Assembly (NCBI RefSeq): GCF_041248615.1
Contig: NZ_CP158426.1
DNA: 64,000 nucleotides
Origin: Escherichia coli
Lineage (GTDB): Bacteria > Pseudomonadota > Gammaproteobacteria > Enterobacterales > Enterobacteriaceae
Strand: one strand, 5' to 3'
Shown here: positions 1-40,671 of the stretch, one piece after another
Layout of the letters: every line of letters starts with the position of its first letter
Numbering within the stretch: position 1 is the first letter of the stretch
Notes under the pieces: model-generated
The model's database searches: none
What the model saw: the letters and a program-made list of their open reading frames with translations, nothing else
What the model was told of the DNA's origin: nothing
Position numbers and translations under genes: made by a program

Positions 1-856
1 GCACGGCGCTTTCCGTTTGCGGGAAGCGCGACATGCCGTCGATCAACTGCCGCGCCTTTTCCTGCTGTACCGCCATCTGCACACGCTGCTGATTAATGCT
101 TTCTAACGTCTGAGAAATCCCCGCTCCGCCCTGTTGCAGGCTTTGCACTAAGCGGTCCGCCTGCGACGGTTCGGCAAAGGTTTTTAGTGGCATAAACGCT
201 GATTTATCACCATCGGTGCGCACGCTTAGGGTGCTTTCAATGTTGGGCCACTGTTTTTCAGTGGTGGAGAAACTTATACCATCGGCGTTTTGATGCATCT
301 GCACGCCCACGCGGCGCAGGGCGTTGGTCAGCCGCGTTTGATACTGCGCGGCGCTGTCATCCTCAGACAGCATCACCGCCGAAAGCTGAGTCTGCCGCCC
401 GTCAGAGACGCTGAACATCCGCGTTCCCGGCGTGGGATTGTGTACCAGATTCGCCAGATCCGGCGAGTGAAAGCTCACCCGCGCTTCCCCCTGCAACACT
501 GGCTGCAACTGGCGGTCCACCGCACCGCCGGAAAGCGCGGTGCGTTTGTCCAGCATCTGCATCAGCGCCGTACTCTGCGCCTGCCCGCCCTTACGCTGGC
601 TGTGACGGTAATCGAGCAACTGCTGCTCCAGTTGCCCGAGATAATGATCCGCCTGCTGCAACGTGGTGAGCTGGTCGTTAAGCTGCACGCTGTAACGCTG
701 CGGGCGAGTGGTAATCAGCGGCGAGGCCGGATATTCACTCGCCGTCGCCGGGAGTTTTTGCCGCACCGCCTGAGTGGGCGCAACGGTTGACGACGATACC
801 GCAGCGCTATGCGCGCCGCCGGTGGTGAGTGACGAAGAAGTAAGTCCGACCTGCAT
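1..856 (-). CDS. Flag-2 cluster protein, partial (5' part only; gene continues past window start); family not recognised
   Basis: My own translation of the minus strand gives an open frame from ATG at 856 (AGGAG 4 nt upstream, directly after the lfgL stop) to position 1; absent from ORF track because no stop lies in the window; Gln-rich product. Confidence 0.45.
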   Translation of the reverse strand, partial: MQVGLTSSSLTTGGAHSAAVSSSTVAPTQAVRQKLPATASEYPASPLITTRPQRYSVQLNDQLTTLQQADHYLGQLEQQLLDYRHSQRKGGQAQSTALMQMLDKRTALSGGAVDRQLQPVLQGEARVSFHSPDLANLVHNPTPGTRMFSVSDGRQTQLSAVMLSEDDSAAQYQTRLTNALRRVGVQMHQNADGISFSTTEKQWPNIESTLSVRTDGDKSAFMPLKTFAEPSQADRLVQSLQQGGAGISQTLESINQQRVQMAVQQEKARQLIDGMSRFPQTESAV

Positions 857-872
857 ACTGCTCCTGAAAGAG

Positions 873-1802
873 TTAGAGAACGCTGAATAAATTCAACTCA
901 CTCACTTTCGAGTAAGTCTTGAGGGTAGCTTCCATTGCTACTTCCAGTCCGGTAAAGGTGATCGACGCCGGGCCGTAATCGAGATCCTGTAATGAACCAA
1001 TCAACTCATCATTAGAAGTAGAGATATCGGTCTGCGCATCGCTCAGCATCGACATGGTGTTCTGCGTCTCGCCGAGCGACGCAATCGAGGCGTTGAGGTC
1101 GTCCGAGGCGGTGTCCACCACGTTAACTGCGTTCTGAATATCGCTCTGCACCTGCGGATCGGCCGGGTCAACGTTTGGGTCTTGCAACTCCTGCGACAGG
1201 GTATTCAGTGTGTTGAGCACATCTAAATTGCTGCCGAAGAAATCGCTCGCCGCCACGTTGGTATCCACTTCCACGCCGTTCGACACCGTGGTCTGGCGGT
1301 GGTCGCTGTTGCCCTGATAGCTGTAGCTGTCGGTCACGCCATCGCCGTCATCGTCCACCGCCACAATCGGCGGCTGATCGTTGATGGTACCGCCAAACAC
1401 GTAATGCCCGTCTTCGTCCTGATAGTTCAGCGCCGCGACCATTGATTCGGTGAGCGACTCAATATCCTGCCCGAGACTTGCGAGCGAATCGGCGGTATTG
1501 GTACCATTCGCCGCTTCCAGCAGGTCGTCGCGCACCGCCAGCAGGCTGTTGTTGACGCCATCAAGAATTGATTCCTGCTGACTTAACCCCGCCGACGCGG
1601 AGTCGATATTGCTCTGATACTGCTCAATCGCCGACTGTTGGCGGTTCAACTGGGTGATGCGCGTGGCGGCGATCGGGTCATCCGACGGCTGCAAAATCTG
1701 CTTGCCGGTTGCCATCTGCTCGACCACATGCGCCAGATCGCCGGAGAGATTATTAAAACTTTGCGTCATCGAGACGTAGGTTTGTTGGGTGGTTACTCGC
1801 AT
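873..1802 (-). CDS. lfgL: Flagellar hook-filament junction protein FlgL-like (hook-associated protein 3)
   Basis: N-terminus MRVTTQQTY..PSDDPIAA matches FlgL/flagellin N-domain pattern; start moved to ATG at 1802 (GGGAG 9 nt upstream), ORF-track start 1826 would overlap flgK. Confidence 0.85.
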   Translation of the reverse strand: MRVTTQQTYVSMTQSFNNLSGDLAHVVEQMATGKQILQPSDDPIAATRITQLNRQQSAIEQYQSNIDSASAGLSQQESILDGVNNSLLAVRDDLLEAANGTNTADSLASLGQDIESLTESMVAALNYQDEDGHYVFGGTINDQPPIVAVDDDGDGVTDSYSYQGNSDHRQTTVSNGVEVDTNVAASDFFGSNLDVLNTLNTLSQELQDPNVDPADPQVQSDIQNAVNVVDTASDDLNASIASLGETQNTMSMLSDAQTDISTSNDELIGSLQDLDYGPASITFTGLEVAMEATLKTYSKVSELNLFSVL

Positions 1803-1816
1803 TTTCGCGCTCCCGC

Positions 1817-3193
1817 TTAGCTGCACATTTCCAGCACCGAATCGAAAATCTCGGCCCCGGCGGAAATGACTTTCAGATTGGCTTCATAAATTTGTTGATA
1901 GGTGATCAGGTTAACCGCCTCTTCGTCCATGCTGACGCCGCTGACGCTGCTCTGCTGGTTTTGCGCTGCGGAATAGACATTGGACGCGGCATCGACTTCC
2001 GTCTGGTTTTGCTGGCTGTAAATGCCGATATTGCTGATGATTGACGAGCACGCCTGCCCGACCGTCACGCTGCCGAGGTTGGCTATTTCCAGCGGTTCGG
2101 TGGAGATATTGATCAGCGCCTGGAGGTTGTCGCTGTTGCCGCTTTCGTCCGGCGAACTGGAGAACGCCAGCTCATCGGCGGTGATATCCGGGTTAACGGT
2201 CAGCGGGCCATCGGCGTTGCTGGCGTCATAAATAAACAGCGGCTCGCCGGGGTTACCGTTGAGATCGTAGCCCTGCGCCAGCTGGTTGTTAACCGCATCG
2301 GCGAACTGCGACGCCATACTGTTGATGGTGTCGGTCAGCGGCGTCAGCACGTCGTTTTGATAATCAAACAGTGCGCCTAATGAACCGCCGGTGTCGGTAG
2401 TCATCGTCGAGGTGGTGCCAGCGAAAGTCAGCGACATGGTCGGCGTGCCGTCGGCGTTGGTTTCCAGCGCGATGGTCGAGCTTTGCTGCCCGCTCACCAG
2501 CGGTTGACCGTTTTTCAGGGTAACGTTGTAGTTGCCCTGGTCGTCGATATTGACCTGCACATCCATCATCCCGCTGAGTTCTTCCACCATCTGGTCGCGG
2601 GCGTCGTACAGCGCGGAGGCGTTATCGCCGTTGGCTTCGGCCTGAGCGATTTGCTGGTTATAGCTGGCGATGCCGCTGGTGAGCGTGTTGATTTGCGACA
2701 CCATCGCCTGCTGCTGGCTGATGATTTCCGTGCTTTGCGAGTCGATGTAATCCAGCGTGTTGTCGATACGCAGCGACAGCGCCCCGGCTTCGCTGATCAC
2801 CTGCTCGCGCAGGGCGGAATCATCAGGGCTGGTGGTCGCTTCGTTAAGGGCGGCGAAGAAGTTATCGAACCCGCCGCTCAGGCTGCTGTTATCGTCGCTC
2901 AGTACCGCTTCCAGTTGCGTGAGATACCCCTGCTGGGTGCTGTAATAGCCGTAATCGCTGGCGGCATACCACACCTGATTCACCTGATACTGGTTAGAGA
3001 CGCGGCGAATGCTGTCGACCTGCACGCCGTTACCGGCGCTGTTTGGCGAACCGCCGCTGGCACCGATGGTGCTGATCTCCGCCACCTGACGGGTGTAGCC
3101 CGTGGTCATGGCGTTGGCGGTGTTTTGCGCCGTGACGTTCAGCTCCACCTGCGCGGTTGATGCCCCGCTGTAGCCGATGTTAATCATGTCCAT
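1817..3193 (-). CDS. lfgK: Flagellar hook-associated protein 1 FlgK-like
   Basis: 458 aa; conserved FlgK N-terminus (NTANAMTTGYTRQ) and C-terminus (SGVSMDEEAVNLITYQQIYEANLKVI). Confidence 0.9.
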   Translation of the reverse strand: MDMINIGYSGASTAQVELNVTAQNTANAMTTGYTRQVAEISTIGASGGSPNSAGNGVQVDSIRRVSNQYQVNQVWYAASDYGYYSTQQGYLTQLEAVLSDDNSSLSGGFDNFFAALNEATTSPDDSALREQVISEAGALSLRIDNTLDYIDSQSTEIISQQQAMVSQINTLTSGIASYNQQIAQAEANGDNASALYDARDQMVEELSGMMDVQVNIDDQGNYNVTLKNGQPLVSGQQSSTIALETNADGTPTMSLTFAGTTSTMTTDTGGSLGALFDYQNDVLTPLTDTINSMASQFADAVNNQLAQGYDLNGNPGEPLFIYDASNADGPLTVNPDITADELAFSSSPDESGNSDNLQALINISTEPLEIANLGSVTVGQACSSIISNIGIYSQQNQTEVDAASNVYSAAQNQQSSVSGVSMDEEAVNLITYQQIYEANLKVISAGAEIFDSVLEMCS

Positions 3194-3269
3194 GTTGGAT
3201 CCTTACCGGTAAATCGTGCCGGTTAAAAGCGGCGTTAGGTTGGGGATTCTTAAGTTCCTTAAACCGGGT

Positions 3270-3352
3270 GCCGGATGCGGCGTGAACGCCTTATCCGGCC
3301 TACATATGGGCGACTCGTAGGCCTGATAAGACGCGCCAGCATCGCATCAGGC
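3270..3352. repeat. REP/BIME element (two inverted REP units)
   Basis: gccggatgcggcgtgaacgccttatccggcctaca followed by inverted copy gtaggcctgataagacgcgccagcatcgcatcaggc in the flgK-flgJ intergenic. Confidence 0.7.
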
Positions 3353-3368
3353 ACCGAACGTCGGAGCC

Positions 3369-3668
3369 TCATTTATGCTTCGGCGATAACTGCTTCACAA
3401 TCATCGCCGCGATCCCAATCCCGTGCTGCTGCGCTAGGGTGTTACACAACTCATCGTCATAAAACCCCTGCATCATGCGCACCGAATCGCTGTTAAATGG
3501 GTTATCTTTCGAATCAAACAACTCGTTGGTTTTACGCATCTCTTTGAGCATGTTGCGTAAAAAAATCGCCTCAAACTGTTCCGCGGCCTGCCTGATATCA
3601 TTGGCCTGAACCTTCGGCCCCATTAACGCATCGCTGCCGTCAATCCCGCCACTGGCATTCACTTTCAT
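3369..3668 (-). CDS. lfgJ: FlgJ-like rod-binding protein (short, N-terminal rod-binding domain only; no muramidase domain)
   Basis: 99 aa; AAEQFEAIFLRNMLKEMRKT motif typical of FlgJ N-domain; ATGA overlap with flgI. Confidence 0.7.
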   Translation of the reverse strand: MKVNASGGIDGSDALMGPKVQANDIRQAAEQFEAIFLRNMLKEMRKTNELFDSKDNPFNSDSVRMMQGFYDDELCNTLAQQHGIGIAAMIVKQLSPKHK

Positions 3669-4783
3669 CAGATCACCTCCAGGTCGGCATCCAGCGCGCC
3701 CGCTTCATGCAGCGCCTGCAAAATCGACATAATGTCGTCCGGCGTCGCGCCTAAACTGTTCAGCGCATTGACCAGCGTTTTCAGGCTGCTCGACTCCGGC
3801 AAACTCACCACGCCAGGGCGCGCATGATTCACCGCGATATTACTCTGCGGCGTTACCGCCGTGCGCCCGCCCGCAAAGGCATTCGGCTGGCTGACGTTGC
3901 TGGTTTCGTTAATCGAAACGGTCAAACTACCGTGCGACACCGCCGCCGCGTGTAGCGCAACGCCATCGCCCATCACCACCGTGCCGGTACGCGAGTTAAA
4001 CACCACGCGAGCGCGGATTTTCTCCGCCTGCACCTGCACATCGTCCAGTTGCGACATAAACGCCACCCGCGCACCGGGGCTGGTAGGCGCGCGCACGGTG
4101 ACGTTGGTGGAACTCTGCGCCGTGGCAATGCCGCCAAACGAGGCGTTGATCGCCGCTGCAATATTATTGGCATCTTTAAACGACGGGCGTTTCAGATTGA
4201 GCGTGATGGTATCGCCCATCTGAAAATCGCTGGGGATCTCACGCTCCACCGTTGCGCCGTTGGGAATTAACCCGGCGGTCGGCGTGTTAACCGTCACGCT
4301 GGAACCGCTGGCCCCGGTGGCGTTCATCCCGCCCACCACCACGCTGCCCTGCGCGAGGGCATAAACTTCGCCATCCGCGCCGTGCAACTGCGTCAGCAAC
4401 AAAGTGCCGCCACGAATACTTTTCGCATCGCCAATCGACGAAACGGTGACATCAATGGTCTGCCCGCGCGAGTACATCGGCGGCAGCGTGGCGCTCACCG
4501 CCACCGCGGCGACGTTTTTCACCTTCGGGTCGATTTTATTCGGCAACTGCACGCCAAACTGGCGCAGCATATTGGTGATGGTCTGGTTAGTGAATTTGAC
4601 CTGGTTTTTATCGCCCGTACCGTCGAGGCCTACCACCAGGCTGTAGCCCACCAGTTGGTTTTCACGCACGCCCTGTACGTTGACCAACGACTCCAGCGAT
4701 TGCGCCAGCGCCACACCGGGCAGCGCCAGGCTTACGGCGATCGCTGCGGCCTTTATCCAGTTTTGCATTGCACTCTCCGGCAT
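3668..4783 (-). CDS. lfgI: Flagellar P-ring protein FlgI
   Basis: 371 aa, signal peptide, strong FlgI pattern ([12 protein letters not shown]...). Confidence 0.9.
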
Positions 4784-5448
4784 TAAATCGGGAACAGAGG
4801 ATGGTTAAACAGCCGCGTCAGCCAGCCTGCGGCGTTGGCGTCGCTTAACGCGCCGCGTCCGGCATAGGAGATACGGGCGTCGGCGATCCGCTGGGAGGAA
4901 ACCGAGTTGTCGTTCTGAATATCGTCGGCGCGTACCAGGCCGCTTAAGCGGATGTACTCATCGCCCTGGTTGAGGGTCAGCCATTTTTCGCCGCGAATTT
5001 CCAGGATGCCGTTGGGCTGCACCGCATGGACGGAAACGGTGATCTCCCCGCGCAGGCTGTTCTGCTGCTGGGAAGTGGCGCTGCCGTCAAAGTCGCGGTT
5101 GGCATCGATGGAGCCGGAAAGCTTATCTTTGGTGTGACCAAAAATGGTCGGTGCGCCGATGTCGACGGTGTTGTTTTTACCGAAGTTGGTTTTCGCCTGT
5201 TTGCTCGACTGGGTGGATTCTTCGAGGATCACCGTCAGGATATCGCCCACGCGGTAAGCCCGCCGATCGGCGGTGAGCGACCAGTTGTAGCCGGTTTCAA
5301 ACACGCCCCCGGCACGCCCGTCTGCCGGAGGCGGTGCTTCGGTTTTCGGTGGCGCAAAGTATGCGTCGTCTTTTTTGACCAGAATGGCCTGCGATTCACA
5401 CCCGCTAAGCAGGGGAAGCAGCGCCACCAGCCAGAGATAATTTTTCAC
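4783..5448 (-). CDS. lfgH: Flagellar L-ring lipoprotein FlgH
   Basis: Lipobox LLSGC; start moved to GTG at 5448 ([17 protein letters not shown]); the ORF-track N-terminal extension runs into a REP repeat. Confidence 0.85.
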
Positions 5449-5484
5449 GTTCTGCCTGTTTAAATACAGTGAGTTATGCGCTTT

Positions 5485-5530
5485 TGTAGGTCGGATAAGA
5501 CGCGTCAGCGTCGCATCCGACATTTCGGCC
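5485..5530. repeat. REP element
   Basis: tgtaggtcggataagacgcgtcagcgtcgcatccgac, REP-like palindrome between flgG and flgH. Confidence 0.6.
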
Positions 5531-6316
5531 TTACAGCGTCTGGCTGATGTACTGCAACATATCGTCCGCCGCCGACACCATTTTGGCGTTCATCTCGTAA
5601 GCGCGTTGCACCGTAATCATCGCCACCATTTCGTTGACGATATCCACGTTCGAGCCTTCCAGCGCATTGTCCTGCAAGGTGCCAAGCCCATCTTCGCCCG
5701 GTACGCCTTCGGTCGGCTGACCGCTGGCAGCGGTTTCCAGATAGAGGTTGTCGCCTTCAGCGGAAAGCCCCGCCGGGTTGGCGAAGTTCACCAGCGTCAG
5801 TTGCCCTAACTCAGTCACGTCGCTGTCGCCGGGTAAGATCGCTGTCACCGTGCCGTCCTCACCAAACGCAACATTCGTCGCCCCCGCCGGAACGTCGATT
5901 TCCGGCTGTAACGGCAAGCCTTGCGAGTTGGTCAGCACGCCGTCGGCGTTCACCTGCAAGTTGCCGTCGCGGGTATAGGCGATATCGCCGTTGGCCTTTT
6001 GCACCTGCAAAAACCCCTGCCCCATAATGGCGACATTCATCGCGTTGTCGGTGGTTTCGACGTTGCCTTCGGTGAAGGTTTTCTGAGTGCCAACAATGCG
6101 CACGCCGCTACCGAATTGCAGCCCGGTCGGCATGATGTTGTTCTGGTCGAGCATCGCGCCCGGCGCTTCCTGGGTCTGGTAGAACAGATCCTGAAACATC
6201 ACCCGGTCGCGCTTGAAGCCGGTGGTGTTAACGTTGGCGATGTTGTTGGCAATCGCGCTCATTTCAGCATCCTGCGCCGAGAGGCCGGTTTTGCTGATCC
6301 ATAATGCTGCGTTCAT
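5531..6316 (-). CDS. lfgG: Flagellar distal rod protein FlgG
   Basis: 261 aa; conserved rod N-terminus (ANNIANVNTTGFKRDR) and C-terminus (LEGSNVDIVNEMVAMITVQRAYEMNAK). Confidence 0.9.
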   Translation of the reverse strand: MNAALWISKTGLSAQDAEMSAIANNIANVNTTGFKRDRVMFQDLFYQTQEAPGAMLDQNNIMPTGLQFGSGVRIVGTQKTFTEGNVETTDNAMNVAIMGQGFLQVQKANGDIAYTRDGNLQVNADGVLTNSQGLPLQPEIDVPAGATNVAFGEDGTVTAILPGDSDVTELGQLTLVNFANPAGLSAEGDNLYLETAASGQPTEGVPGEDGLGTLQDNALEGSNVDIVNEMVAMITVQRAYEMNAKMVSAADDMLQYISQTL

Positions 6317-6342
6317 GGTGGTTTATTCCCTGGTGTCTGTTA

Positions 6343-7080
6343 TCACGAGCCGCGCAATAAGCGGTTGCCCGCGTCGCTGATATCTTCGGCGGTTTTCATC
6401 ATCTTGATCTGCGCTTCAAACTGGCGGTTCATGGCGATGGACGACATCATCTCGCTCACCGCCGAGACGTTACTGCCCTCCAGAAAACCGCCGCTAACTT
6501 TGATGTTTTCATCACGCTGGGCCGGAACGCCGTCGGCAGTTATCAGCATCCCTTCAGGATTTTTCGCCAGGTTAGCGACAGGAATATCCACCAGCTTCAG
6601 GCGGTCGATATCCATGGTTGCAGTCACGTCGCCGTCATCGGGCGTCACCGACAGCGTGCCGTCGCTGCCAAACGAAGCAATGGCGTTCGGCGGCAGAATG
6701 ATCGGGCCGTTATCCCCCAGCACCAGATTGCCGTCGATGGTCAGTTGCCCCTGGTCGTCCTGCTGAATGTTGCCGTTGCGGGTATACACTTCGTTGCCGT
6801 TTTTATCCTGCACCGCAATGTAACCCGCGCCCTGAATCGCCACGTCCAGCGGGCGTTCGGTTTTCTCCGCTACACCCGTGCTGTCGTTCACGCCGCTGGC
6901 CCCTTCCTGCGCCATATAGCGCGTGTCGAAGCCGCCGCCTTTCACCTTGTCGTTGGTCGCCATCGCCATGTCGGCGCGAAAACCGTTGGTGTTGACGTTC
7001 GCCAGGTTGTTGGCGCTAATCTGCTGCTCGTACAGGGTCTGAGAAGCACCGCTCAGGGCGGTATAAATCAGGCGGTCCAT
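6343..7080 (-). CDS. lfgF: Flagellar proximal rod protein FlgF
   Basis: 245 aa; rod-family N- and C-terminal motifs; gene order flgE-flgF-flgG. Confidence 0.85.
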   Translation of the reverse strand: MDRLIYTALSGASQTLYEQQISANNLANVNTNGFRADMAMATNDKVKGGGFDTRYMAQEGASGVNDSTGVAEKTERPLDVAIQGAGYIAVQDKNGNEVYTRNGNIQQDDQGQLTIDGNLVLGDNGPIILPPNAIASFGSDGTLSVTPDDGDVTATMDIDRLKLVDIPVANLAKNPEGMLITADGVPAQRDENIKVSGGFLEGSNVSAVSEMMSSIAMNRQFEAQIKMMKTAEDISDAGNRLLRGS

Positions 7081-8282
7081 TACATTGCCTGGAACAGCGC
7101 GTCATCGAGCTGCGTGCTGGTGGCGATAACTTTGGTGTTGGCCTGATAGTTACGCTGGGCGGTCATCAGGTTGACCAGTTCGCTGGTGATATCGACGTTA
7201 GAGCTTTCGAGCACGCCCGACGATAGCGTGCCGCAGGTGCCGGAGCCGGGAACGCCAATCAGCGGGGTGCCGGATTCCCCGGTTTGTACCCACGCGGTGC
7301 CGCTCACCGCTTCGAGTCCGTTTTCATTCGGGAAAGTCGCCAGCACCACCTGGCCCTGCAACATGCGCTCGCCGTTGCTGTAGGTGGCGTAAACTTTGCC
7401 ATCGTCATCGACCTGCACACCGTTTTGCGTTGCGGAGGCGTAGCCGTTGGCGGCGTTGGTGGTGACCGAAAATTCAGAGCCGTATTGCGTACAGGTGGAG
7501 TAATCGACGGTTAAGTCGATGGGTGCGGCGGCGTCGGTCTGAAACTCAATGGTCTGTGGCGTGGTTGGCGAGGTCAGCTTCCCGGTGTTCGGGTCGAAGG
7601 TTAATGTCGTCGCCGGAACGCCAGTCTGCTGCTGACCGTCGAAGGTGTACTGCACTTCCCAGGTGTTGTCGCTGGTTTTGGTGAAATACTGGCATACCGA
7701 GTGTTCGTTACCTAATGAGTCATATACCGTGGTGGTGTAGCTGTCGGTATACGAGCTGCTGTTGGTCGCGTCGAACGGTACGGTTGTACGGTCTATAGCC
7801 GCATCGCTGGCATCGAAGTTAGCGGTAAAGGTCAGGCTGCTGCTGGCCTGCGCCGGGATATTGCCGGTTTTGATCTGGATATCGGTGACCGTACCGGTTT
7901 GCAGAGTGCCCGTGTCATCGACCGGATAACCCTGTAAATAAGCGCCCGAGGCGTTGACAATATAGCCGTTTTTGTCGGTTTCAAACGATCCGGCGCGGGT
8001 ATAAGAAATGTTGCCCGCGCTGTCGCAGGTAACAAAAAAGCCGTCGTTGTTAATCGCCAGATCCAGCGCGTTACCGGTGGAGACCAGCGAACCGCCGCGC
8101 GAAATACTTTGCGCGGTGCCTGCCACGCTGACGCCCATCGCCTGACTTCCGGCATACATGGCTGAAAACTGGGTGGTCATCGACTTATAGCCTACCGTTC
8201 CGGCGTTGGCGATGTTGTTACTGATCCCGTCGAGCTGTTCGTTAACGGCATTCAGCCCCGTTGCGGCAATTTCATAACTCAT
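7080..8282 (-). CDS. lfgE: Flagellar hook protein FlgE
   Basis: 400 aa; hook-family termini (ISNNIANAGTVGYK ... LESSNVDITSELVNLMTAQRNYQANTKVI). Confidence 0.9.
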   Translation of the reverse strand: MSYEIAATGLNAVNEQLDGISNNIANAGTVGYKSMTTQFSAMYAGSQAMGVSVAGTAQSISRGGSLVSTGNALDLAINNDGFFVTCDSAGNISYTRAGSFETDKNGYIVNASGAYLQGYPVDDTGTLQTGTVTDIQIKTGNIPAQASSSLTFTANFDASDAAIDRTTVPFDATNSSSYTDSYTTTVYDSLGNEHSVCQYFTKTSDNTWEVQYTFDGQQQTGVPATTLTFDPNTGKLTSPTTPQTIEFQTDAAAPIDLTVDYSTCTQYGSEFSVTTNAANGYASATQNGVQVDDDGKVYATYSNGERMLQGQVVLATFPNENGLEAVSGTAWVQTGESGTPLIGVPGSGTCGTLSSGVLESSNVDITSELVNLMTAQRNYQANTKVIATSTQLDDALFQAM

Positions 8283-8329
8283 TGTTTCTTCCTGTTAATT
8301 CAAATTTTGACAGCGTGCCCGTTGTTTTG

Positions 8330-8410
8330 CCGGATGCGGCGTGAACGCCTTATCCGGCCTACAAAACCATGCAGTTTCATGTAGGCCTGATAAGCGAAGC
8401 GCATCAGGCA
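8330..8410. repeat. REP/BIME element (two inverted REP units)
   Basis: gccggatgcggcgtgaacgccttatccggcctaca ... tgtaggcctgataagcgaagcgcatcaggc between flgE and flgD. Confidence 0.7.
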
Positions 8411-8425
8411 ATTTGGCACCGGACA

Positions 8426-9139
8426 TCACGCCACATCACTGTCGGCATCGGGTACGCCAAACTGGCTAATCATGGTGAACGGCACTTCGCCCACGCCTGC
8501 AACATTGAGCACCGGAGAGCTGCCGTCGAGCGGGATGCGCACATCTTCCACTTCGCCGGAGACTTCAATCGGCACCTCTTCTTCCCCGGTGTTGGTGACC
8601 ACCGAGACGTCGTAATCGCCCGGCGGGATACCGTAATCCGCCGGATTAATCGAGAAATCGACCTGGCCTGGCCCGACGGACGAACTGCCTTCCGGGATCA
8701 GCGACACCGTATAGTCATCGCCTGCGGCATCGGTAAAGTGGAGATCGGCGGTGGTACAGGCGTCGTCAAGCGTGGCGCGACCATTAATGGTCTGGTCGCT
8801 CACCTGCAAGGCGGTGGTCTGCACCATAATGTCGTCACCCACCAGGTTGCCGAGCGCCATCACCTGAATGTTGCTCATCAGCACCGCGTTGGTGTTGGCC
8901 TGCACACTCATCTCTTCCATCATCGCCACCTGCGCCATCGAAGAAAGCTGGTCGATATATTCGGTGGCGTCAGTCGGGTCGGTCGGGTCCTGGTTTTGGA
9001 TCTCAGCGACAAACAGCGTCAGGAAAGTATCAACGGGCGAGCTATCGCTGCTACTTTGCGTGTCGCTGGCCGCCACGTTGTTGCTTTCCGCCGTGGCGGT
9101 CGGCTGCGGCGATTGCGCATTCAGCGCCAGGGTATTCAT
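8426..9139 (-). CDS. lfgD: Flagellar hook assembly/capping protein FlgD
   Basis: 237 aa; FlgD-like central motif (FLTLFVAEIQNQDPTDP); position between flgC and flgE. Confidence 0.85.
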   Translation of the reverse strand: MNTLALNAQSPQPTATAESNNVAASDTQSSSDSSPVDTFLTLFVAEIQNQDPTDPTDATEYIDQLSSMAQVAMMEEMSVQANTNAVLMSNIQVMALGNLVGDDIMVQTTALQVSDQTINGRATLDDACTTADLHFTDAAGDDYTVSLIPEGSSSVGPGQVDFSINPADYGIPPGDYDVSVVTNTGEEEVPIEVSGEVEDVRIPLDGSSPVLNVAGVGEVPFTMISQFGVPDADSDVA

Positions 9140-9570
9140 CAGGCTTCTCCCAGTTTCAGCAGGCTTTGCTGCATACTTTTCACGTTGTTGAGCACATCGA
9201 CATTGGTTTCAAAATCGCGCGAGGCCGACATCATGTCCGCCATCTGTTCCACCACGTTGACGTCGGGATACCAGACATCCCCGTTAGCATCGGCGAGCGG
9301 CGAATGCGGTTCATAGCGTTTCACCGCCCCGCCGGTTTGCAGCACGTCCTGCACCTGCACGCTGGCACCATCAATGGCATGGCGATGCGTTCCCGCCAGC
9401 AAGCTGTGGTGATACACCGCCGCAAACACCGGGCTGCGCGCTTTATACGCCTGCGCCTCGCTGCCGGCAGGTGCATTGGCATTCGCCAGGTTACTGGCAA
9501 CGGTATTCAGACGTAGCGTTTGCGCCGTCATCGCCGAGCCGGAAATCTGATAGATATCAGTAAATGACAT
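9139..9570 (-). CDS. lfgC: Flagellar rod protein FlgC
   Basis: 143 aa; MSFTDIYQISGSAMTAQ..NLANANA.. typical FlgC. Confidence 0.9.
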   Translation of the reverse strand: MSFTDIYQISGSAMTAQTLRLNTVASNLANANAPAGSEAQAYKARSPVFAAVYHHSLLAGTHRHAIDGASVQVQDVLQTGGAVKRYEPHSPLADANGDVWYPDVNVVEQMADMMSASRDFETNVDVLNNVKSMQQSLLKLGEA

Positions 9571-9572
9571 GC

Positions 9573-9908
9573 TTATTTCCCTTCAATGGCCTCTCTGATG
9601 CCGCTGATTTGCAGATTCAGAAAGGTCAGACTGCTTTGATAATCCATACTATTTTGTGAAAACCGCGCCTGTTCGCTGTTTAGTTCCACGGTGTTGCCAT
9701 CTTCCGACGGCTGCATCGGCACGCGGTACTGGACATCCACCGCCGCGTTATTTGCCCGTTGCATCTCCCTGGCAAAATCAATATCTTTAGCCTTGAAATT
9801 TGGCGTATCGACGTTCGCCAGATTCGCAGTCAGTAGCTCGGTCCTCTCAAGACGTAACTTCACTGCCTGCGGATGCACTCCCAATGCCTGTTGAAAACTG
9901 ATCCCCAT
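9573..9908 (-). CDS. lfgB: Flagellar rod protein FlgB
   Basis: FlgB motif LLTANLANVDTPNFKAKDIDF; start moved to ATG at 9908 because the ORF-track start 9938 lies upstream of the transcription start implied by the sigma-54 promoter. Confidence 0.85.
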   Translation of the reverse strand: MGISFQQALGVHPQAVKLRLERTELLTANLANVDTPNFKAKDIDFAREMQRANNAAVDVQYRVPMQPSEDGNTVELNSEQARFSQNSMDYQSSLTFLNLQISGIREAIEGK

Positions 9909-9944
9909 TTCCTGCGTCACTCCTGCTTCAATCCGCATACGCTA

Positions 9945-9960
9945 AGCAATCGCCGTGCCA
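9945..9960 (-). promoter_or_regulatory. sigma-54 (-24/-12) promoter for the lfgB operon
   Basis: Minus strand reads TGGCACGGCGATTGCT, a full match to TGGCACG-N4-TTGCW. Confidence 0.6.
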
Positions 9961-9989
9961 TTTTTTAAGTCACTGATGAGAAAGGGTTT

Positions 9990-10727
9990 ATGAGTTTTCA
10001 ATTTTGCAGGCGGAAGTTGTTCTTCCTCCTGGTGCTGGCCTTACCGGGCTACGCCGCCGTCCACCCCGTGCAACACAGCGCGCGGGAACAAGTCAACGCC
10101 CAGGTGCTGAATGCCGCGAGCCAGGAAATTGAATCGATGGCGCAGCAACGGCAGTGGCATGACTATCGCTACACCTTTAAGGTCTACATTCCCTCGCAGA
10201 TTGCGACCGCCGCCCCCTGTGCGACAACACCCGGCGTTACGCTCACTTCGCCTGCGGACATCGCCCTCAACCGGATGAACTTCACCGTCAGTTGCCCGCA
10301 AAGCTGGCAGATGAACGTGGCGGTGCGCCCGGATGTACTGGTGCCCGTGGTGATGACAAAGTCACTGGTTGCCCGCGATACGCCGCTCACGGCGAATGAT
10401 GTGGAGTTGAAGCCCTACAACTTCAGCGCCCAGCGGCGGGATGTGTTGATGGAGCTCGATGACGCAATTGGTTTAAGCAGTAAGCACGCGTTGCAACCGG
10501 GCAGGCCCATCACCAAAGAAGAGCTGGTTTCGCCAGTGCTGGTCGAACGCGATCAGCCGGTGATGATTGTTTACCAGAGCGCGGGGATCACCGCCTCGAT
10601 GCCCGGCGTGGCGCTGAAAAATGGCCGCAAAGGCGAGATGGTGAAAGTACGTAACGCAAGCAGCCAGCGGGTCATCAGCGCGATGGTGGCAGAAAGCGGC
10701 GTGGTGACGACGGTAAGCGCGGAGTAA
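9990..10727 (+). CDS. lfgA: Flagellar P-ring assembly chaperone FlgA-like
   Basis: 245 aa, signal peptide, divergent from flgB as in flagellar loci; moderate family resemblance. Confidence 0.75.
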   Translation: MSFQFCRRKLFFLLVLALPGYAAVHPVQHSAREQVNAQVLNAASQEIESMAQQRQWHDYRYTFKVYIPSQIATAAPCATTPGVTLTSPADIALNRMNFTVSCPQSWQMNVAVRPDVLVPVVMTKSLVARDTPLTANDVELKPYNFSAQRRDVLMELDDAIGLSSKHALQPGRPITKEELVSPVLVERDQPVMIVYQSAGITASMPGVALKNGRKGEMVKVRNASSQRVISAMVAESGVVTTVSAE

Positions 10728-10914
10728 TTTGCTGTAATACCGCGTAGCATATGTATGACTAGCTCCCAATATTCTGACTTTCTGACAAATTTCATTGTGT
10801 ATTTTGGATAATTATTGAGCACTCAATCACTACTGTTTAAATATCCAGATGATAACTATTTCATCTGGGTCAAATGAGTGATATTGTATCACCAATAAGA
10901 CCTACGGGGGTGCT

Positions 10915-12339
10915 ATGTCTGAATTTGAATTGCTCGTGAAAGATCTTCTTTTAAAATCAGAAGAAGACGAGAAAAAGCGACAAGAAAAAGATCGAGAATT
11001 AATTTCAAAGGTTCTTGAAATCTATGATCAAAAATATGTTGCAGAACTCCTACGAAAAGTAGGAAAAAATGAATGGAGCAGAGAAACACTTAACCGTTGG
11101 ATAAATGGTAAGTGTAACCCTAAACAATTAACTTCTGCTGAGGAAACTTTACTTCGAAAGATGCTCCCAGAACCTCCCGAACATCATCCTAACTATACAT
11201 TTCGTTTTATTGATTTATTCGCAGGGATTGGTGGTATTCGTAAAGGCTTCGAAAATATTGGTGGGCAGTGTGTTTTTACTAGCGAATGGAATAAAGAAGC
11301 GGTAAGAACCTACAAAGCTAATTGGTTTAATGATGAACTAAATCATAAATTTAATCTTGATATACGAGAAGTCACTTTAAGTGATAGAGATGATGTTTCC
11401 GAAATGGAAGCCTATAATCATATAGACAAAAATATTCCAGATCATGATGTCCTTCTGGCCGGTTTTCCATGTCAACCCTTTAGTCTGGCTGGGGTAAGCA
11501 AGAAAAATTCTCTGGGGCGTGCACATGGTTTTGAATGTGAGGCACAAGGAACACTATTTTTTGATGTCGCTCGAATTATTAAATCAAAAAAACCAGCTAT
11601 TTTTGTGCTTGAGAATGTGAAGAACCTTAAAAGTCATGATAAAGGTAAGACTTTTAAAGTCATCATGGAAACACTCAATGAATTAGGGTATGAAGTCGCC
11701 GATGCTGGTGTGACTGGCTCAGATGATCCTAAAATTATAGATGGAAAACATTTTTTACCCCAACATCGTGAGCGTATAGTGTTGGTAGGATTTCGTAGGG
11801 ATCTAAATATTCACAAGGATTTCACGTTACGAAATATTAACCGCTTTTACCCTCAAAACAGGCCAACATTTGGTGAATTATTAGATCATGATGTTGACGA
11901 CAAATATATTTTGACTCCAAGGTTATGGGAATATCTTTACAATTATGCAAAAAAACATGCAGCAAAAGGAAATGGATTTGGTTTTGGTTTAGTGGATCCT
12001 AAAAATCCAGATAGTATCGCACGAACGCTGTCTGCTCGTTACCATAAAGATGGCTCTGAAATACTGATCGATCGTGGCTGGGATAAGGCTGTCGGTGAAA
12101 TCGATTTTAGTAATCCAGCGAATCAAGAGAATCGACCAAGAAGACTGACACCTCATGAATGTGCCAGGTTAATGGGTTTTGAAAAACCAGGGGGAAGACC
12201 TTTTAGAATACCTGTATCAGATACTCAAGCTTATAGACAATTTGGGAACTCAGTTGTTGTGCCAGTATTTGAAGCTGTAGCAAGATTACTAGAACCGTAC
12301 ATACAAAAGGCTGTCAGCATGCAAGTTATTAACGATTAA
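10915..12339 (+). CDS. DNA cytosine-5 methyltransferase, Dcm/M.EcoRII family (predicted CCWGG specificity)
   Basis: 474 aa; motif I FAGIGG, motif IV PCQPFS, ENV, QFGNSV; near-collinear with M.EcoRII/Dcm as recalled; gene is AT-rich unlike flanks. Confidence 0.9.
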
Positions 12340-12362
12340 TAATAATTAACTTTCACTATTGT

Positions 12363-12386
12363 GAGGCCTTTTTTATTAAAGGCCTC
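12363..12386. terminator. Hairpin between convergent methyltransferase and endonuclease genes (candidate bidirectional terminator)
   Basis: gaggccttt-tttatt-aaaggcctc perfect 9-bp stem in AT-rich context. Confidence 0.4.
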
Positions 12387-12426
12387 TAAATATATAATCA
12401 TAAGTTATTATAAGTATACTTTTATA

Positions 12427-13632
12427 TTATACAAAATCTTCATACAGCGTTATTAACTGTGTGATAAAACCCTCTAACGTTAATAATCCCTCCCTGATTT
12501 CCTCCGGATATTTTTTATGAAGAGGGGAAGGTACAACCAAGGTGACACCTTCAGCTCTCATTTCGTTAAATTGAGCAACTGAGACACCCTCTTGTAAGGT
12601 AAACAAATATATTTTGTTGATTTTATTTGCTTCATTGAGTGCCTGACGCCACCGATCCTTACATGTTGTTTTTACAGCAAGCATACGGAGTTTTTCTCTT
12701 GGAAAGTGATCATCATGGTAAGCTGCCGCTGATGGAAAAAGAAAATCGGGTTTCTTTTTTCCTTCAGTAATACATTGAGTAGCAAAATGATGCAGTCCAT
12801 GCTCAATAAAAATTTGCTCAAGATGTAGCTCCAGTGATTTCCCGGCTCGAGATTTTCTTCGATTACTAACAGAGTTAGCCATAGCTATAAAATCATCTAC
12901 AGAACCAAACCCTTGACGGATGATGTCCAGTACGTGAATTTCTTCAACCATTAGAAAGAGATCATATTCAATACGGCGGCGTTCTAAAAGTTGGTCATCT
13001 GGACTGGTTACGCCTGTTGGGTAATAACCCGCAGCATATTGAATAATCTCTAAGCCAGAAGGAAAGCTATGTTTCCAGCTTTCCGGAATAACATATTCCT
13101 TTTGAGAGATTTTTGGCCTTGATGCGAGTACACCAAGTATTTCACTGGCAGGCCCAAACATTAAAGTTCCAGGAATGATCTCCCCAATAGCTGATTCCAG
13201 TACATCCTCTTCTTCTGGGCTAACACAAACCCATACATCAACACTTTTGCTGTCTCTCCCTGGCTCATGTTCAAACGCAAGCACAGACAAAGCACCTGTA
13301 TTTTCCGGATCCTGTAGGGGACTGCCAGCCCCCCACCGAGTGATGCGTTTTTCATTTCTTGTTTGCCCGAAATACTTATTATTGTAGTAAATAGCGCGAA
13401 CCTCACTGTCTACACATTCATGAGAGGAATAAGTTGCGCGCAATAAAACCGAAGGATTTTTTTCTGACGTATGATCTATAGATGGGAAAAGTTCAGCGAC
13501 GATACCAGAAGGGATATATACCCCCACTTGATGCCCTCCTGTTGCACCAGTGTCGTTTGCTGAAAGACGTTTAATATAGAGATAGTTGTTACCACCGACC
13601 TTATCAAGCAGCCAATCTTGTAATCCTGACAT
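12427..13632 (-). CDS. Type II restriction endonuclease, EcoRII-like
   Basis: 401 aa; N-terminal YIKRLSANDTGATGGHQVGVYIPSGI and overall layout match EcoRII as recalled; convergent with the MTase; AT-rich. Confidence 0.75.
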   Translation of the reverse strand: MSGLQDWLLDKVGGNNYLYIKRLSANDTGATGGHQVGVYIPSGIVAELFPSIDHTSEKNPSVLLRATYSSHECVDSEVRAIYYNNKYFGQTRNEKRITRWGAGSPLQDPENTGALSVLAFEHEPGRDSKSVDVWVCVSPEEEDVLESAIGEIIPGTLMFGPASEILGVLASRPKISQKEYVIPESWKHSFPSGLEIIQYAAGYYPTGVTSPDDQLLERRRIEYDLFLMVEEIHVLDIIRQGFGSVDDFIAMANSVSNRRKSRAGKSLELHLEQIFIEHGLHHFATQCITEGKKKPDFLFPSAAAYHDDHFPREKLRMLAVKTTCKDRWRQALNEANKINKIYLFTLQEGVSVAQFNEMRAEGVTLVVPSPLHKKYPEEIREGLLTLEGFITQLITLYEDFV

Positions 13633-13804
13633 AAGACATCCTTATTTTTGCATAGTATCCGATTCAGATTTTTCCACATATCCATCAGAACGACCAGAAC
13701 CAACATATCTGAACAAAAAGTAAATATGCGATAACGATTAAAGTTTTGCCGCCTGTTAACCGCTTTACCGGAGTAACCCACCTAAATACCGAGACGAGGT
13801 TGCG

Positions 13805-14080
13805 ATGAAAATCACCCCGACTATGCCAGGCAATCGCCCGACAGTCACAACGGCAGGCTCCAGCCAGCCGCGCAAAGGCACGGCGACCACCACGACGCTA
13901 AGCGCCGACGACATTACCCAGGCGGGATTGCAGTCTGCCCAGCAAACACTGAACGACCAGCAAGAGAGCGATATCGACAGCGATAAAGTGGCGCAAATGC
14001 AGGCGATGCTGGCCTCCGGCAGCCTGCAAGTGGACACCGAACAGTTAGCCAGCGACATGCTGAGTTTTTTCCAGAACTAA
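13805..14080 (+). CDS. lfgM: Anti-sigma-28 factor FlgM-like
   Basis: 91 aa; C-terminal pattern (IDSDKVAQMQAMLASGSLQVDTEQLASDML) typical of FlgM. Confidence 0.8.
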   Translation: MKITPTMPGNRPTVTTAGSSQPRKGTATTTTLSADDITQAGLQSAQQTLNDQQESDIDSDKVAQMQAMLASGSLQVDTEQLASDMLSFFQN

Positions 14081-14647: not shown

Positions 14648-15580
14648 ATGAGTTTTATTGAATGTTACGAACCGGAATACGTGCGCAATTTTATGACGCA
14701 ATATCCCGATTCGCCTTTGTACATCCGCAAGGTGTGGAAAAACGAGATTCGCCAGAGCCTGATGCTGACAGAGCCAGAAAGCTGCGAAGCGGTGCTCAAC
14801 GATGCCAGGGCCTTTGATTTACAGCTCACCTACCGCCCGGCGGAAGATAATGCCGCAGAACTCTCCGCGCGCGATGCGATAGTAAACCAGGTCATTTTGA
14901 GCACCCTTACGCTCCCCGATTTACCCCCGGAGCTTTCACTGTACGCCGTCGGGATTTTGCTCTCCCGCGCCAGCAAAATGCCGGGCAGAGACGGAGATAT
15001 TCTTGCCCGCTTGACGACGCTGCCACAGGCGCTGGCCGATCATGCACAAAAAGGCACGCTACAGGCACAGTTCGCCCAGCTGCCGCCCGTGCCACAGCTG
15101 GCGCGCCAGTTGATGACGCTGCTCGGCAGTTGTGCGTTTGACTGGTCGATTCTGCCGGAAAGCCCGCGCAAAACTTCGCTGCCGTTGCAGATGCCTTTGC
15201 TGGCGCTACATGACGCCAACAGCGAAGCCCTGTTACAACAGCAGCTTCAGGCACAGTGGCAAACCACCTGGCAACAGCATTTTGCCACCGCGCCCTGGAT
15301 GATGCGTAACTGGCTGATTTACCGCGTTTACCATGAGGTGATTGGGCAGGCAGACGGAGCAGATTATTGCCCGCTGGTGTGCGATTTTTATCTTATCCGC
15401 ACGTTAATCAGTTTATGGACGCTGGATGGTTCTCCGCTGCGACAGGAGGATATTTTCGCCCTCTTTGCCATGTTTGAACGCTGGCGAGCCAGTGAAAATG
15501 CTGTGCTGATTCGCCAACAAATTCAGGCTGAACGTTCCGCAGATCCCCTGCTTTATGCGTTTTCACTGCTGTCTTGCTAA
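14648..15580 (+). CDS. Hypothetical protein (Flag-2 associated, family not recognised)
   Basis: Long ORF with ATG at 14648 downstream of the sigma-54 promoter; ORF-track start 14609 is a TTG inside the promoter. Confidence 0.6.
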   Translation: MSFIECYEPEYVRNFMTQYPDSPLYIRKVWKNEIRQSLMLTEPESCEAVLNDARAFDLQLTYRPAEDNAAELSARDAIVNQVILSTLTLPDLPPELSLYAVGILLSRASKMPGRDGDILARLTTLPQALADHAQKGTLQAQFAQLPPVPQLARQLMTLLGSCAFDWSILPESPRKTSLPLQMPLLALHDANSEALLQQQLQAQWQTTWQQHFATAPWMMRNWLIYRVYHEVIGQADGADYCPLVCDFYLIRTLISLWTLDGSPLRQEDIFALFAMFERWRASENAVLIRQQIQAERSADPLLYAFSLLSC

Positions 15581-31805: not shown

Positions 31806-32564
31806 CTACAAAATCGTCTCTTCCGTCAAAATCCTGCGCGCGCCTAAAAAATGATCCTGCCAGAAAGGTTCAGCTAACCGACTTACCCGAATGGTTTCCC
31901 CGGTGCGCGGCGACTCGATAAACTGACCGTCTCCCAGATACACGCCCATATGATCGGCAATCTCGCGGCTGTGGATATGGAAAAACAGCAAATCTCCCCG
32001 GCGCAGGTCGTTGTTCGCCACAATCGTTGCCCGATGGTAGTGATACATCTCATTGGCCGTGCGCGGGAGCTTCGCCTCGAGGATCTTGTTGTAGGCATAA
32101 AAAACCAACCCGCTACAGTCGAAGCCTTGATCGGGCCGCGTGCCGCCCCAGACGTAAGGCTTGCCAAGCTGCTGCTCCAGGCGGTGAATCGCCACTTCGG
32201 TGATGTTGTGTAGATGGTCGCTGCTTAAGAAATGGTTGTTCTCCGCCAGCGCCTGCCAGCGTCTGTCACTTGCCTTGAGCGGCGCAGGAAACCATTCTGG
32301 ATGCTGTTTTATCTGTTCGCGGTTGTGCTGGCGCAGCGCCTTTCTGCTTTCGGCATTGCCTTCCACAATATAGCTGGCCTGTTTTTTCAGATGGGTTTGG
32401 TACTGTTTTAATAAACGCGCACGGTTTTGCATCCGCTGGCGGGCGGCGTAGCTGAAAGAGATATGTGATGTGGTGGCGCTGGCGAGTAAAGGGAGCAAAA
32501 CGCATAACGAAAACACGCCTGGATGCAGAAATCTGCCGTGAAAGAACGAAGACATGAAGGACAT
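31806..32564 (-). CDS. yafL: NlpC/P60 family peptidase YafL
   Basis: 252 aa; catalytic Cys context GFDCSGLV; near-identical to E. coli YafL as recalled. Confidence 0.85.
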   Translation of the reverse strand: MSFMSSFFHGRFLHPGVFSLCVLLPLLASATTSHISFSYAARQRMQNRARLLKQYQTHLKKQASYIVEGNAESRKALRQHNREQIKQHPEWFPAPLKASDRRWQALAENNHFLSSDHLHNITEVAIHRLEQQLGKPYVWGGTRPDQGFDCSGLVFYAYNKILEAKLPRTANEMYHYHRATIVANNDLRRGDLLFFHIHSREIADHMGVYLGDGQFIESPRTGETIRVSRLAEPFWQDHFLGARRILTEETIL

Positions 32565-32855: not shown

Positions 32856-33596
32856 ATGCGTAAAATCGCATTAATTCTTGCGATGTTGTTGATCCCGTGC
32901 GTTTCGTTTGCCGGTTTGCTGGGCAGCAGTAGCTCGACCACGCCAGTGAGCAAAGAGTATAAGCAGCAGTTGATGGGATCCCCTGTCTACATCCAGATCT
33001 TCAAGGAAGAACGTACGCTCGATCTCTACGTCAAAATGGGCGAGCAATATCAACTGCTCGACAGCTATAAAATCTGTAAATATTCCGGCGGCTTGGGGCC
33101 AAAACAGCGTCAGGGCGATTTCAAAAGCCCGGAAGGGTTTTATAGCGTCCAGCGTAATCAGTTAAAACCAGACAGCCGTTACTACAAAGCGATTAATATT
33201 GGATTCCCCAATGCCTATGACCGTGCGCATGGTTATGAAGGGAAATACCTGATGATCCACGGTGATTGTGTTTCCATCGGCTGCTACGCAATGACCAATC
33301 AGGGTATTGATGAGATCTTCCAGTTCGTTACTGGTGCGCTGGTGTTTGGTCAGCCGAGCGTGCAAGTGAGTATTTACCCGTTCCGCATGACCGACGCCAA
33401 TATGAAGCGCCATAAATATTCCAACTTTAAGGACTTCTGGGAGCAGCTGAAGCCAGGTTACGACTACTTTGAGCAAACCCGTAAGCCACCGACCGTTTCT
33501 GTGGTCAATGGTCGTTACGTGGTCAGCAAGCCGTTAAGCCACGAAGTTGTGCAACCACAGCTGGCATCAAACTACACGCTCCCCGAGGCAAAATAA
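32856..33596 (+). CDS. yafK: L,D-transpeptidase family protein YafK
   Basis: 246 aa; YkuD-type [14 protein letters not shown]; matches E. coli YafK; 30-bp convergent overlap with yafJ as in K-12. Confidence 0.9.
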
Positions 33597-34411: not shown

Positions 34412-35168
<757 letters not shown>

Positions 35169-35272
35169 ATCAGCATACTTGTCCTTAGCCTTCTGCAGTG
35201 ACAGCTGGTAGTACAGCGTGCTTCTGGCCAGCCCTGCAGCCTTTAACAGGTCAGACTGGCAGTGTCCGCACC

Positions 35273-35803
35273 TCAGGCTCCGGATGACTTTCGTTTTTTC
35301 TCCAGCTCCTGGCGCTTTTTTTCCAGGAGATGCTCCTGCATGGCTTTCAGATATGCATTTTCTGCGCGAAGATAACGCAGCTCATTCTTCATCTCTTCCG
35401 GCGTCATGTTTGCCTCGTTTTCATGGGTATCATCAGAACGGGTCATGCTTTTCTCCTTCCTGCGCCTGATAAAGGCCTCATTACCAGATTTGCGGTAGCC
35501 TTTTATCCAGTTTTTAACCGTGTTGTGGCTGGGAATGTTAAACCGGGCAGCTACCCGGGGTAGAGACTCAGAATGCCCGAGAGCATAAAGAACCACGCAA
35601 AGTTTATCTTCAGGAGAATAGCTACGCTTGTGTCTGCAATCCAGTGCCCGAGGACCGTGAAGAAGAAAAAGATTAATCCAGTGTGAGAGGCTGGTGTGAG
35701 AAAGTTGAAAGAGTTTTGCCGTAGAAATGATGCCTGCATGACCAGCCAGGTAATGATTTACAGCGGCAAGTTTTACTTCAAATGAATGTTTCATAAACTG
35801 CAC
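35273..35803 (-). CDS. IS3-family transposase OrfA (HTH/leucine zipper)
   Basis: 176 aa; HTH and C-terminal leucine zipper typical of IS3 OrfA. Confidence 0.85.
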   Translation of the reverse strand: MQFMKHSFEVKLAAVNHYLAGHAGIISTAKLFQLSHTSLSHWINLFLLHGPRALDCRHKRSYSPEDKLCVVLYALGHSESLPRVAARFNIPSHNTVKNWIKGYRKSGNEAFIRRRKEKSMTRSDDTHENEANMTPEEMKNELRYLRAENAYLKAMQEHLLEKKRQELEKKRKSSGA

Positions 35804-35874
35804 CTTCAGATGTCAGATTATGTCCAACATTTGGGGTGCAGTTCAGTAAACGTCTTATCCGGCCTACGCCAGAC

Positions 35875-36453: not shown

Positions 36454-36692
36454 GAGGATATCCTTCAGCATAAATGTAATAGACAAAATGCAGTGTACCG
36501 GATACCGCCAAAAGCGAGAAGTACGGGCAGGTGCTATGACCAGGACTTTTTGACCTGAAGTGCGGATAAAAACAGCAACAATGTGAGCTTTGTTGTAATT
36601 ATATTGTAAACACATTGCTAAATGTTTTTACATCCACTACAACCATATCATCACAAGTGGTCAGACCTCCTACAAGTAAGGGGCTTTTCGTT

Positions 36693-39137: not shown

Positions 39138-39144
39138 TTGAATA

Positions 39145-39170
39145 ACGGAGCCGAAAGGCTCCGTTTCTTT
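39145..39170 (+). terminator. Rho-independent terminator after fadE (may also serve convergent ivy)
   Basis: acggagcc-gaaa-ggctccgt hairpin followed by TTCTTT. Confidence 0.6.
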
Positions 39171-39179
39171 ATCCGCTAA

Positions 39180-40577: not shown

Positions 40578-40671
40578 GTGGGTGTTGTGTTTAGGGGCGG
40601 GGTAAGACTACGGGTCAGGGCAAGATTACGAAAGCCCGGAGCCTGTCCATCATTCTGTGTAAATGCCTTTC

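Follow-up and report, generated by a model that had tools for sequence, protein, structure and literature searches.

A rod-binding-only FlgJ, LfgJ, in the Flag-2 flagellar cluster of Escherichia coli

The Flag-2 flagellar cluster of Escherichia coli encodes a FlgJ of 99 residues that consists of little more than a rod-binding domain. We analysed a 64-kb stretch of E. coli DNA, hereafter the window, in which this gene is lfgJ, the intact Flag-2 (lateral-type) orthologue of flgJ. Its shortness is the normal, conserved state of Flag-2 clusters, and single-domain Flag-2 FlgJ proteins are already known and annotated. In the reading that we consider likely, lfgJ is an ordinary gene of this kind whose product serves as a rod cap, while an enzyme from another locus opens the cell wall. 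Flag-2 and the gene name lfgJ reportedly go back to work by Ren and colleagues in 2005.

Table 1. Positions of lfgJ, its parts and its neighbours in the window
Feature	Position	Strand	Remark
lfgJ coding sequence	3369-3668	minus	99 aa and TGA stop; single-domain FlgJ of Flag-2, WP_001589748.1
Shine-Dalgarno GGAGG	3676-3680	minus	7 nt 5' of the lfgJ ATG, within the 3' end of lfgI
Pfam PF10135 Rod-binding domain	3390-3545	minus	codons 42-93; E 3.2e-14; inside predicted helices
LfgJ N-terminus	3612-3668	minus	codons 1-19; predicted disordered (pLDDT <50), variable alignment columns
lfgI, Flag-2 P-ring protein FlgI	3668-4768	minus	directly upstream of lfgJ, same operon
lfgK, Flag-2 hook-associated protein 1	1817-3193	minus	next gene downstream of lfgJ
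Two REP hairpins, opposite orientation (BIME)	3267-3355		fill the lfgJ-lfgK spacer
TTAAGAA-N13-GCCGCTTT	3226-3253	minus	5' of lfgK; invariant in an alignment of 15 Flag-2 loci from seven genera
lafW (Flag-2, conserved)	1-856	minus	part in the window; full gene L001:16780-17757
Part of Flag-2 in the window	1-31708		lafW 3' part, lfgL to lfgA, R-M insertion, lfgMN, variable region 1, lfiJ to lfiE, lafK, lfiMNPQR, lfhBA
yafL, NlpC/P60 endopeptidase	31806-32555	minus	starts 98 bp past lfhA
dpaA/yafK, YkuD fold, Lpp-detaching amidase	32856-33596	plus	after yafL

The identity of the gene follows from its sequence and its place. The ORF listing gives a minus-strand frame of exactly 99 codons. At 100% identity, the window corresponds to part of the chromosome of E. 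coli NRZ14408 (NZ_LT599825.1; a window coordinate is the coordinate in that record minus 4195545), where RefSeq labels the ORF 'rod-binding protein' and flanks it with FlgI and FlgK. The orthologue in E. coli 042 is likewise 99 aa long (L002:3270-3569), and the Flag-2 stretch is present in 1225 of 5426 complete E. coli genomes. On inspection of the sequence, the start codon of lfgJ (ATG, 3666-3668) and the stop codon of lfgI (TGA) share bases in an ATGA (3666-3670); this overlap and the GGAGG upstream suggest that lfgJ is translationally coupled to lfgI.

The surrounding genes place lfgJ firmly in Flag-2, a locus known from the description by De Maayer et al. 2020 (PMC6993521), which covers E. 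coli 042 and the Enterobacterales. One half of the cluster reads lafU-motA-sigma28-fliL-fliK-...-lafA-...-flgL-flgK-[lfgJ]-flgI-flgH-flgG-flgF-flgE-flgD-flgC-flgB and the other flgA ... flgMN ... fliJIHGFE-lafK / fliMNPQR-flhBA, with dinB and yafL flanking the whole. In the published nomenclature this is lfhAB-lfiRQPNM-lafK-lfiEFGHIJ / lfgNMABCDEFGHIJKL / lafW...lafU, as PMC6993521 describes. The Flag-2 DNA of the window shares 96.6% nucleotide identity with the E. coli 042 locus. LfgI of the window is 48% identical to the Flag-1 FlgI of the same genome, versus 68–100% to other Flag-2 LfgI proteins. Gene content, gene order and flanking genes thus agree with a preliminary description of this DNA, made from its letters alone, which had placed the ORF in a Flag-2 cluster.

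LfgJ is a single-domain protein. Its match to PF10135 scores 53.6 bits against a cut-off of 25.1 and covers the full 51-position model. Rod-binding is the sole Pfam family found at E <= 1, and only 6 residues separate the domain from the C-terminus. The NCBIfam FlgJ model TIGR02541, which has 294 positions, matches LfgJ at 21-91 only and at 67.9 bits against a cut-off of 193; a canonical bifunctional FlgJ matches this model over its full length above 193 bits, and LfgJ does not. Indeed, LfgJ lies far under every curated NCBIfam cut-off. The C-terminal GH73 domain with its catalytic glutamates, present in the Flag-1 paralogue, is missing. With no GH73, SLT or M23 domain in the polypeptide, LfgJ is of the single-domain PF10135 type, and its position between flgI and flgK, which recurs in 80 related loci, is that of the FlgJ rod-binding family. 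Names of the 'peptidoglycan hydrolase' kind persist for FlgJ homologues of ~100 aa in NCBIfam NF009349 and NF009351, and they are wrong for LfgJ.

The predicted structure is largely helical. An AlphaFold2 model of LfgJ, of only moderate confidence (mean pLDDT 63), places helices at residues 22-51, 61-80 and 86-94. We infer that residues 1-19, ahead of the first helix, are the flagellar type III export signal region. A profile search of the PDB returned no solved structure of a rod-binding domain.

Is the short ORF the remains of a longer gene? In such a case it would be the stump of a two-domain FlgJ cut by a frameshift, a REP insertion or a sequencing error. Mobile REP sequence does lie in the spacer behind the lfgJ stop, and a syntenic cluster in Plesiomonas carries a two-domain FlgJ of 328 aa. 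However, a glucosaminidase-domain HMM, derived from three two-domain FlgJ proteins, detected no GH73 remnant when run over the 64 kb in six frames; its best hit had E = 2. The lfgJ-lfgK spacer (3194-3368) has stops in all three minus-strand frames and consists largely of the two REP hairpins; at only 175 bp it leaves no room for a glucosaminidase domain.

The length of the protein is also conserved well beyond this strain. The 104 closest LfgJ homologues, from Escherichia, Citrobacter, Leclercia, Scandinavium, Buttiauxella, Dryocola and Pseudescherichia, are mostly about 99–106 aa long apart from fragments, and Rod-binding is nearly always their only recorded domain. We also scanned loci in one genome per species, taking the best 80 of 255 matches, all of them named. 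Every Flag-2-type locus of a named Enterobacterales species in this set (67 of 67, REP-free ones included) has a rod-binding-only FlgJ of 97–142 aa between lfgI and lfgK. The LfgI proteins of these 67 loci are 68–100% identical to that of the window and about 45% to Flag-1 FlgI, and in Enterobacterales loci without REP the lfgI/lfgJ/lfgK spacers measure 0–130 bp. Conserved length (identical in E. coli 042), a dN/dS of 0.05 and the absent GH73 remnant rule out lfgJ as a truncated gene; we give the stump reading practically no chance of being right.

These results bear out everything checkable that the preliminary description, which named no strand, had read from the letters. It had reported a 99-aa product with an N-terminal rod-binding signature of FlgJ and no C-terminal muramidase domain, which is what the PF10135 match, the TIGR02541 match confined to the first third of that model and the lack of any second Pfam family or GH73 signal show. 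The domain search that it proposed as a check returned Rod-binding alone, at residues 42-93. Neither of the two observations that it named as contrary to its reading, a muramidase domain in the ORF or a truncating frameshift, was made.

Substitution patterns likewise point to a working gene. lfgJ has a dN/dS of 0.046 against the E. coli 042 allele and of 0.05–0.16 across comparisons, and against Citrobacter pN is 0.08 with pS saturated. Judged by these ratios, lfgJ is under strong purifying selection, which argues for a function somewhere in the life cycle. Strain EC958 of E. coli ST131 did not express Flag-2 in the laboratory conditions tested (PMC4637896), and a frameshift mutation reportedly inactivates the locus of E. 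coli 042 (PMC6993521), so function of Flag-2 in E. coli itself is uncertain.

Within E. coli, lfgJ alleles can be far apart: those of the window and of strain 042 differ with a dS of 0.27 at synonymous sites. A 701-bp region is matched at >=99% by only 8 of 5469 records. Flag-2 alleles are thus unusually divergent within the species, which fits the recombination reported for the Flag-2 locus.

The spacer behind lfgJ is itself variable. Its length varies between 75 and 795 bp in relatives; there the REP part is absent or different, and this part has no alignment to E. whittamii or Pseudocitrobacter. The REP hairpins account for the 183,150 places returned by megablast. In Escherichia the REP pair lies between the lfgJ stop and the TTAAGAA motif. 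This motif with its partner (Table 1) resembles the sigma-28 consensus, and we regard it as a candidate sigma-28 (LafS)-type late promoter of lfgKL-lafW. If this is true, lfgJ would be the last gene of an lfgB-J operon and lfgKL-lafW would form a late operon, as in Flag-1. A scan around lfgJ for sigma-70 promoters and intrinsic terminators found none.

Between lfgA and lfgM (10915-13632), Flag-2 is interrupted by a DNA cytosine methyltransferase gene and a gene for a type II restriction endonuclease. Related Escherichia and Pseudocitrobacter loci align to about 10732 and again from about 13735, so this R-M insertion is lineage-specific. Over window positions 1-14000, the Flag-2 DNA of Pseudocitrobacter faecalis and P. 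vendiensis (L012, L013) is 92–94% identical to the window; for comparison, the values are 93.6% for Escherichia whittamii and 82% for Citrobacter youngae. The closeness between Pseudocitrobacter and E. coli suggests a recent horizontal transfer of Flag-2 between the genera. A record titled 'Chryseobacterium sp. 18061' (L024) also holds an enterobacterial Flag-2, with LfgJ 80% and LfgI 79% identical to E. coli; this assembly is probably mislabelled or contaminated. Downstream of Flag-2, at about 34446-42000 and 42700-64000, come a copy of IS1397, an ISAs1 transposase with a frameshift, an Rhs core protein accompanied by VgrG and Hcp, and a type VI secretion cluster that is complete from tssB to tssA.

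RefSeq annotation, together with Pfam searches of ORFs of no assigned family, revealed no peptidoglycan glycosidase in the window or in the rest of the Flag-2 locus. The preliminary description had seen no separate hydrolase, and neither the window nor the remainder of Flag-2 contains a lytic transglycosylase or muramidase. No SLT gene with a signal peptide lies inside the E. coli Flag-2 cluster, the arrangement that defines the SltF type. Across the 67 Enterobacterales loci, no GH73 or FlgJ-type SLT domain occurs within 10 kb on either side of lfgJ; the SLT HMM was trained on FlgJ-fused SLT domains only, and other hydrolase families would escape it in the 80 loci. Pfam-level checks of the neighbours covered five loci. 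In the Flag-2 loci of Tatumella and Budvicia, the 10 kb to each side are free of hydrolase domains.

Four uncharacterized products of the locus were considered as hidden hydrolases and rejected. LafW is conserved in 70 of 82 loci and has no match to a sequence family. Its AlphaFold2 model (pLDDT 74) is confident in the core and shows terminal helices and a central alpha/beta domain, Foldseek matches the model to flagellins (FliC, FlaA-D), HAP3 and FliD, and the C-terminus bears the axial-protein motif TVRSLLG. The flagellin/HAP-like predicted fold points to an axial-type protein and not an enzyme. In variable region 1, a 310-aa 'hypothetical protein' (14648-15580, plus strand) resembles the flagellin lysine-N-methylase FliB, with a weak match below cut-off (NF038110, E 5.7e-12). 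Next to it, an 821-aa ORF is a GT2 glycosyltransferase and a 134-aa ORF a cytidylyltransferase. Together with the FliB-like ORF, these two probably form a flagellin-modification island. For a 103-aa ORF at the LafD position, the family search gave noise only.

Two peptidoglycan-active proteins, YafL and DpaA/YafK, are encoded in the window just outside Flag-2, and neither is a glycosidase. Beyond their genes lies ivy, for a lysozyme inhibitor (39180-39626), which makes a small wall-related gene cluster adjoining Flag-2. Elsewhere in the NRZ14408 genome, about 1.0 Mb from Flag-2, the Flag-1 FlgJ (313 aa, 3197634-3198575) combines Rod-binding with Glucosaminidase; the preliminary description had proposed a search of the genome for such a muramidase.

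How could a FlgJ of this kind work? By analogy with Salmonella, Rhodobacter and Borrelia as described in the literature, LfgJ would be exported via the Flag-2 type III apparatus. It would then cap the growing rod, guide the rod subunits LfgB/C/F/G into place as their scaffold, and be displaced before the hook forms. A gene elsewhere would supply the enzyme that breaches the peptidoglycan. On the precedent of SltF and BB0259, this enzyme would most likely be a housekeeping lytic transglycosylase, exported by Sec and either active at the rod tip or drawn to it.

The preliminary description went one step further and held that wall clearance must come from a separate hydrolase. That neither LfgJ nor the locus supplies a glycosidase agrees with this claim, but the word 'must' goes beyond what is observed. 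Given a long incubation, flgJ mutants of Salmonella remain able to swim (review, PMC8781033), so lysis helps and may not be absolutely required.

One alternative source of lysis is the canonical two-domain FlgJ of Flag-1, whose glucosaminidase could open the wall for Flag-2 rods in trans. Both proteins are encoded in the same genome, and the N-domain of the Flag-1 protein is 35% identical to LfgJ over 77 residues. Yet each FlgJ passes through its own basal body and works at the tip of that structure, and the two systems have separate regulators, with lafK and a sigma-28 gene of its own in the Flag-2 locus. Comparative evidence weighs against the idea as well. According to De Maayer et al. (PMC6993521), Flag-1 is missing from Budvicia, Pragia and Tatumella although these genera are described as motile, and each carries a single-domain LfgJ (Budvicia aquatica, 106 aa; Pragia fontium, 103 aa; Tatumella ptyseos, 124 aa). 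Flag-1 FlgJ is therefore not a general source of wall cutting, and we consider its action in trans unlikely. In Budvicia and Tatumella, reported to be Flag-1-less and motile and with no hydrolase in the 10 kb around, a non-flagellar enzyme must suffice.

About equally unlikely is a reading in which no dedicated or recruited lysis is needed, with rods crossing the wall at openings made by growth and turnover and LfgJ acting purely as a cap. Such a reading would account for the finding of a hydrolase in none of the Flag-2-type loci examined. However, GH73 or SLT fusions have been retained or gained independently in related lateral-type clusters, which suggests that lysis is advantageous, and a specific transglycosylase is required in every experimentally studied single-domain FlgJ system that we found (Rhodobacter, PMC7277832; Borrelia, PMC8517470). 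A very slim chance attaches to YafL or DpaA/YafK as the Flag-2 wall opener. Their genes stand directly beyond lfhA, but nothing links either to flagella, and both are presumably also present in K-12, which we take to be without the Flag-2 locus. We also regard as very improbable the broader proposal that the whole Flag-2/lateral lineage uses a non-lytic cap with a co-opted general wall enzyme, possibly the non-glycosidase YafL or DpaA in E. coli. If such co-option were true, it would amount to a different chemical route of flagellar wall penetration. Our preference remains a rod cap served by an enzyme encoded elsewhere.

The FlgJ proteins of clusters with Flag-2 gene order come in three architectures: Rod-binding alone, Rod-binding with GH73 and Rod-binding with SLT. 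The first is found in all Enterobacterales Flag-2 loci examined and in Photobacterium (167–175 aa), which represented the Vibrionaceae; sequence searches for further lateral FlgJ proteins reached Plesiomonas, polar-type FlgJs and Photobacterium. The SLT fusion occurs in Pseudomonas indica (398 aa, L078:9971-11167) and in five metagenomic proteins (P0136, P0145, P0167, P0171, P0174). The Pseudomonas indica fusion sits in a lateral-type cluster with a LafW-like gene. A glucosaminidase domain is present in 55 and absent in 85 of the best 140 new representatives from a profile search (150 listed minus representatives fetched earlier). That the rod-binding domain occurs fused to GH73 and to SLT argues for its acting in concert with an enzyme that cuts glycan. 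One syntenic lateral-type family thus holds the domain alone, GH73-fused and SLT-fused, and species reported to have Flag-2 only retain the short LfgJ. This makes enterobacterial Flag-2 a genetically tractable setting in which to ask which housekeeping wall enzyme serves an enzyme-less cap.

Among two-domain proteins, the Flag-1 FlgJ of Salmonella and E. coli shares with LfgJ a homologous N-terminal domain and the same slot between flgI and flgK. It differs in carrying GH73 at residues 160-295, whereas LfgJ stops where the FlgJ linker starts. The lateral cluster of Plesiomonas shigelloides follows the Flag-2 gene order (fliHIJ, flgNMA, flgB-L, lafA onward), and the N-domain of its FlgJL is 38% identical to LfgJ. 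Unlike LfgJ, FlgJL has 328 aa with a Glucosaminidase domain, a two-domain form tabulated in PMC4481668. Its best match outside Plesiomonas lateral FlgJ is the polar FlgJ of Plesiomonas, at 43% identity. The glucosaminidase domain of FlgJL may have been retained, regained or borrowed; a tree to decide the direction of evolution would be unreliable, given the mere 75 residues of the rod-binding domain.

FlgJ proteins with a single domain have been a recognised category since Nambu et al. 2006, according to the accounts in PMC8517470 and PMC8781033. In Borrelia burgdorferi a rod-binding-only FlgJ interacts with a separately encoded SLT enzyme, BB0259, which is required to get through the wall (PMC8517470). 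The Borrelia system differs in being a spirochaete periplasmic flagellum, and its FlgJ is needed for hook/filament and not for rod assembly (PMC8517470). Fla1 of Rhodobacter sphaeroides resembles Flag-2 in having a short rod-binding-only FlgJ encoded in a rod-gene operon, with wall cutting provided separately (PMC7277832). There the single-domain FlgJ works with SltF, a Sec-exported lytic transglycosylase (PMC7277832). The difference lies in where the enzyme is encoded: sltF is within the flgG operon, whereas the E. coli Flag-2 locus has no transglycosylase gene.
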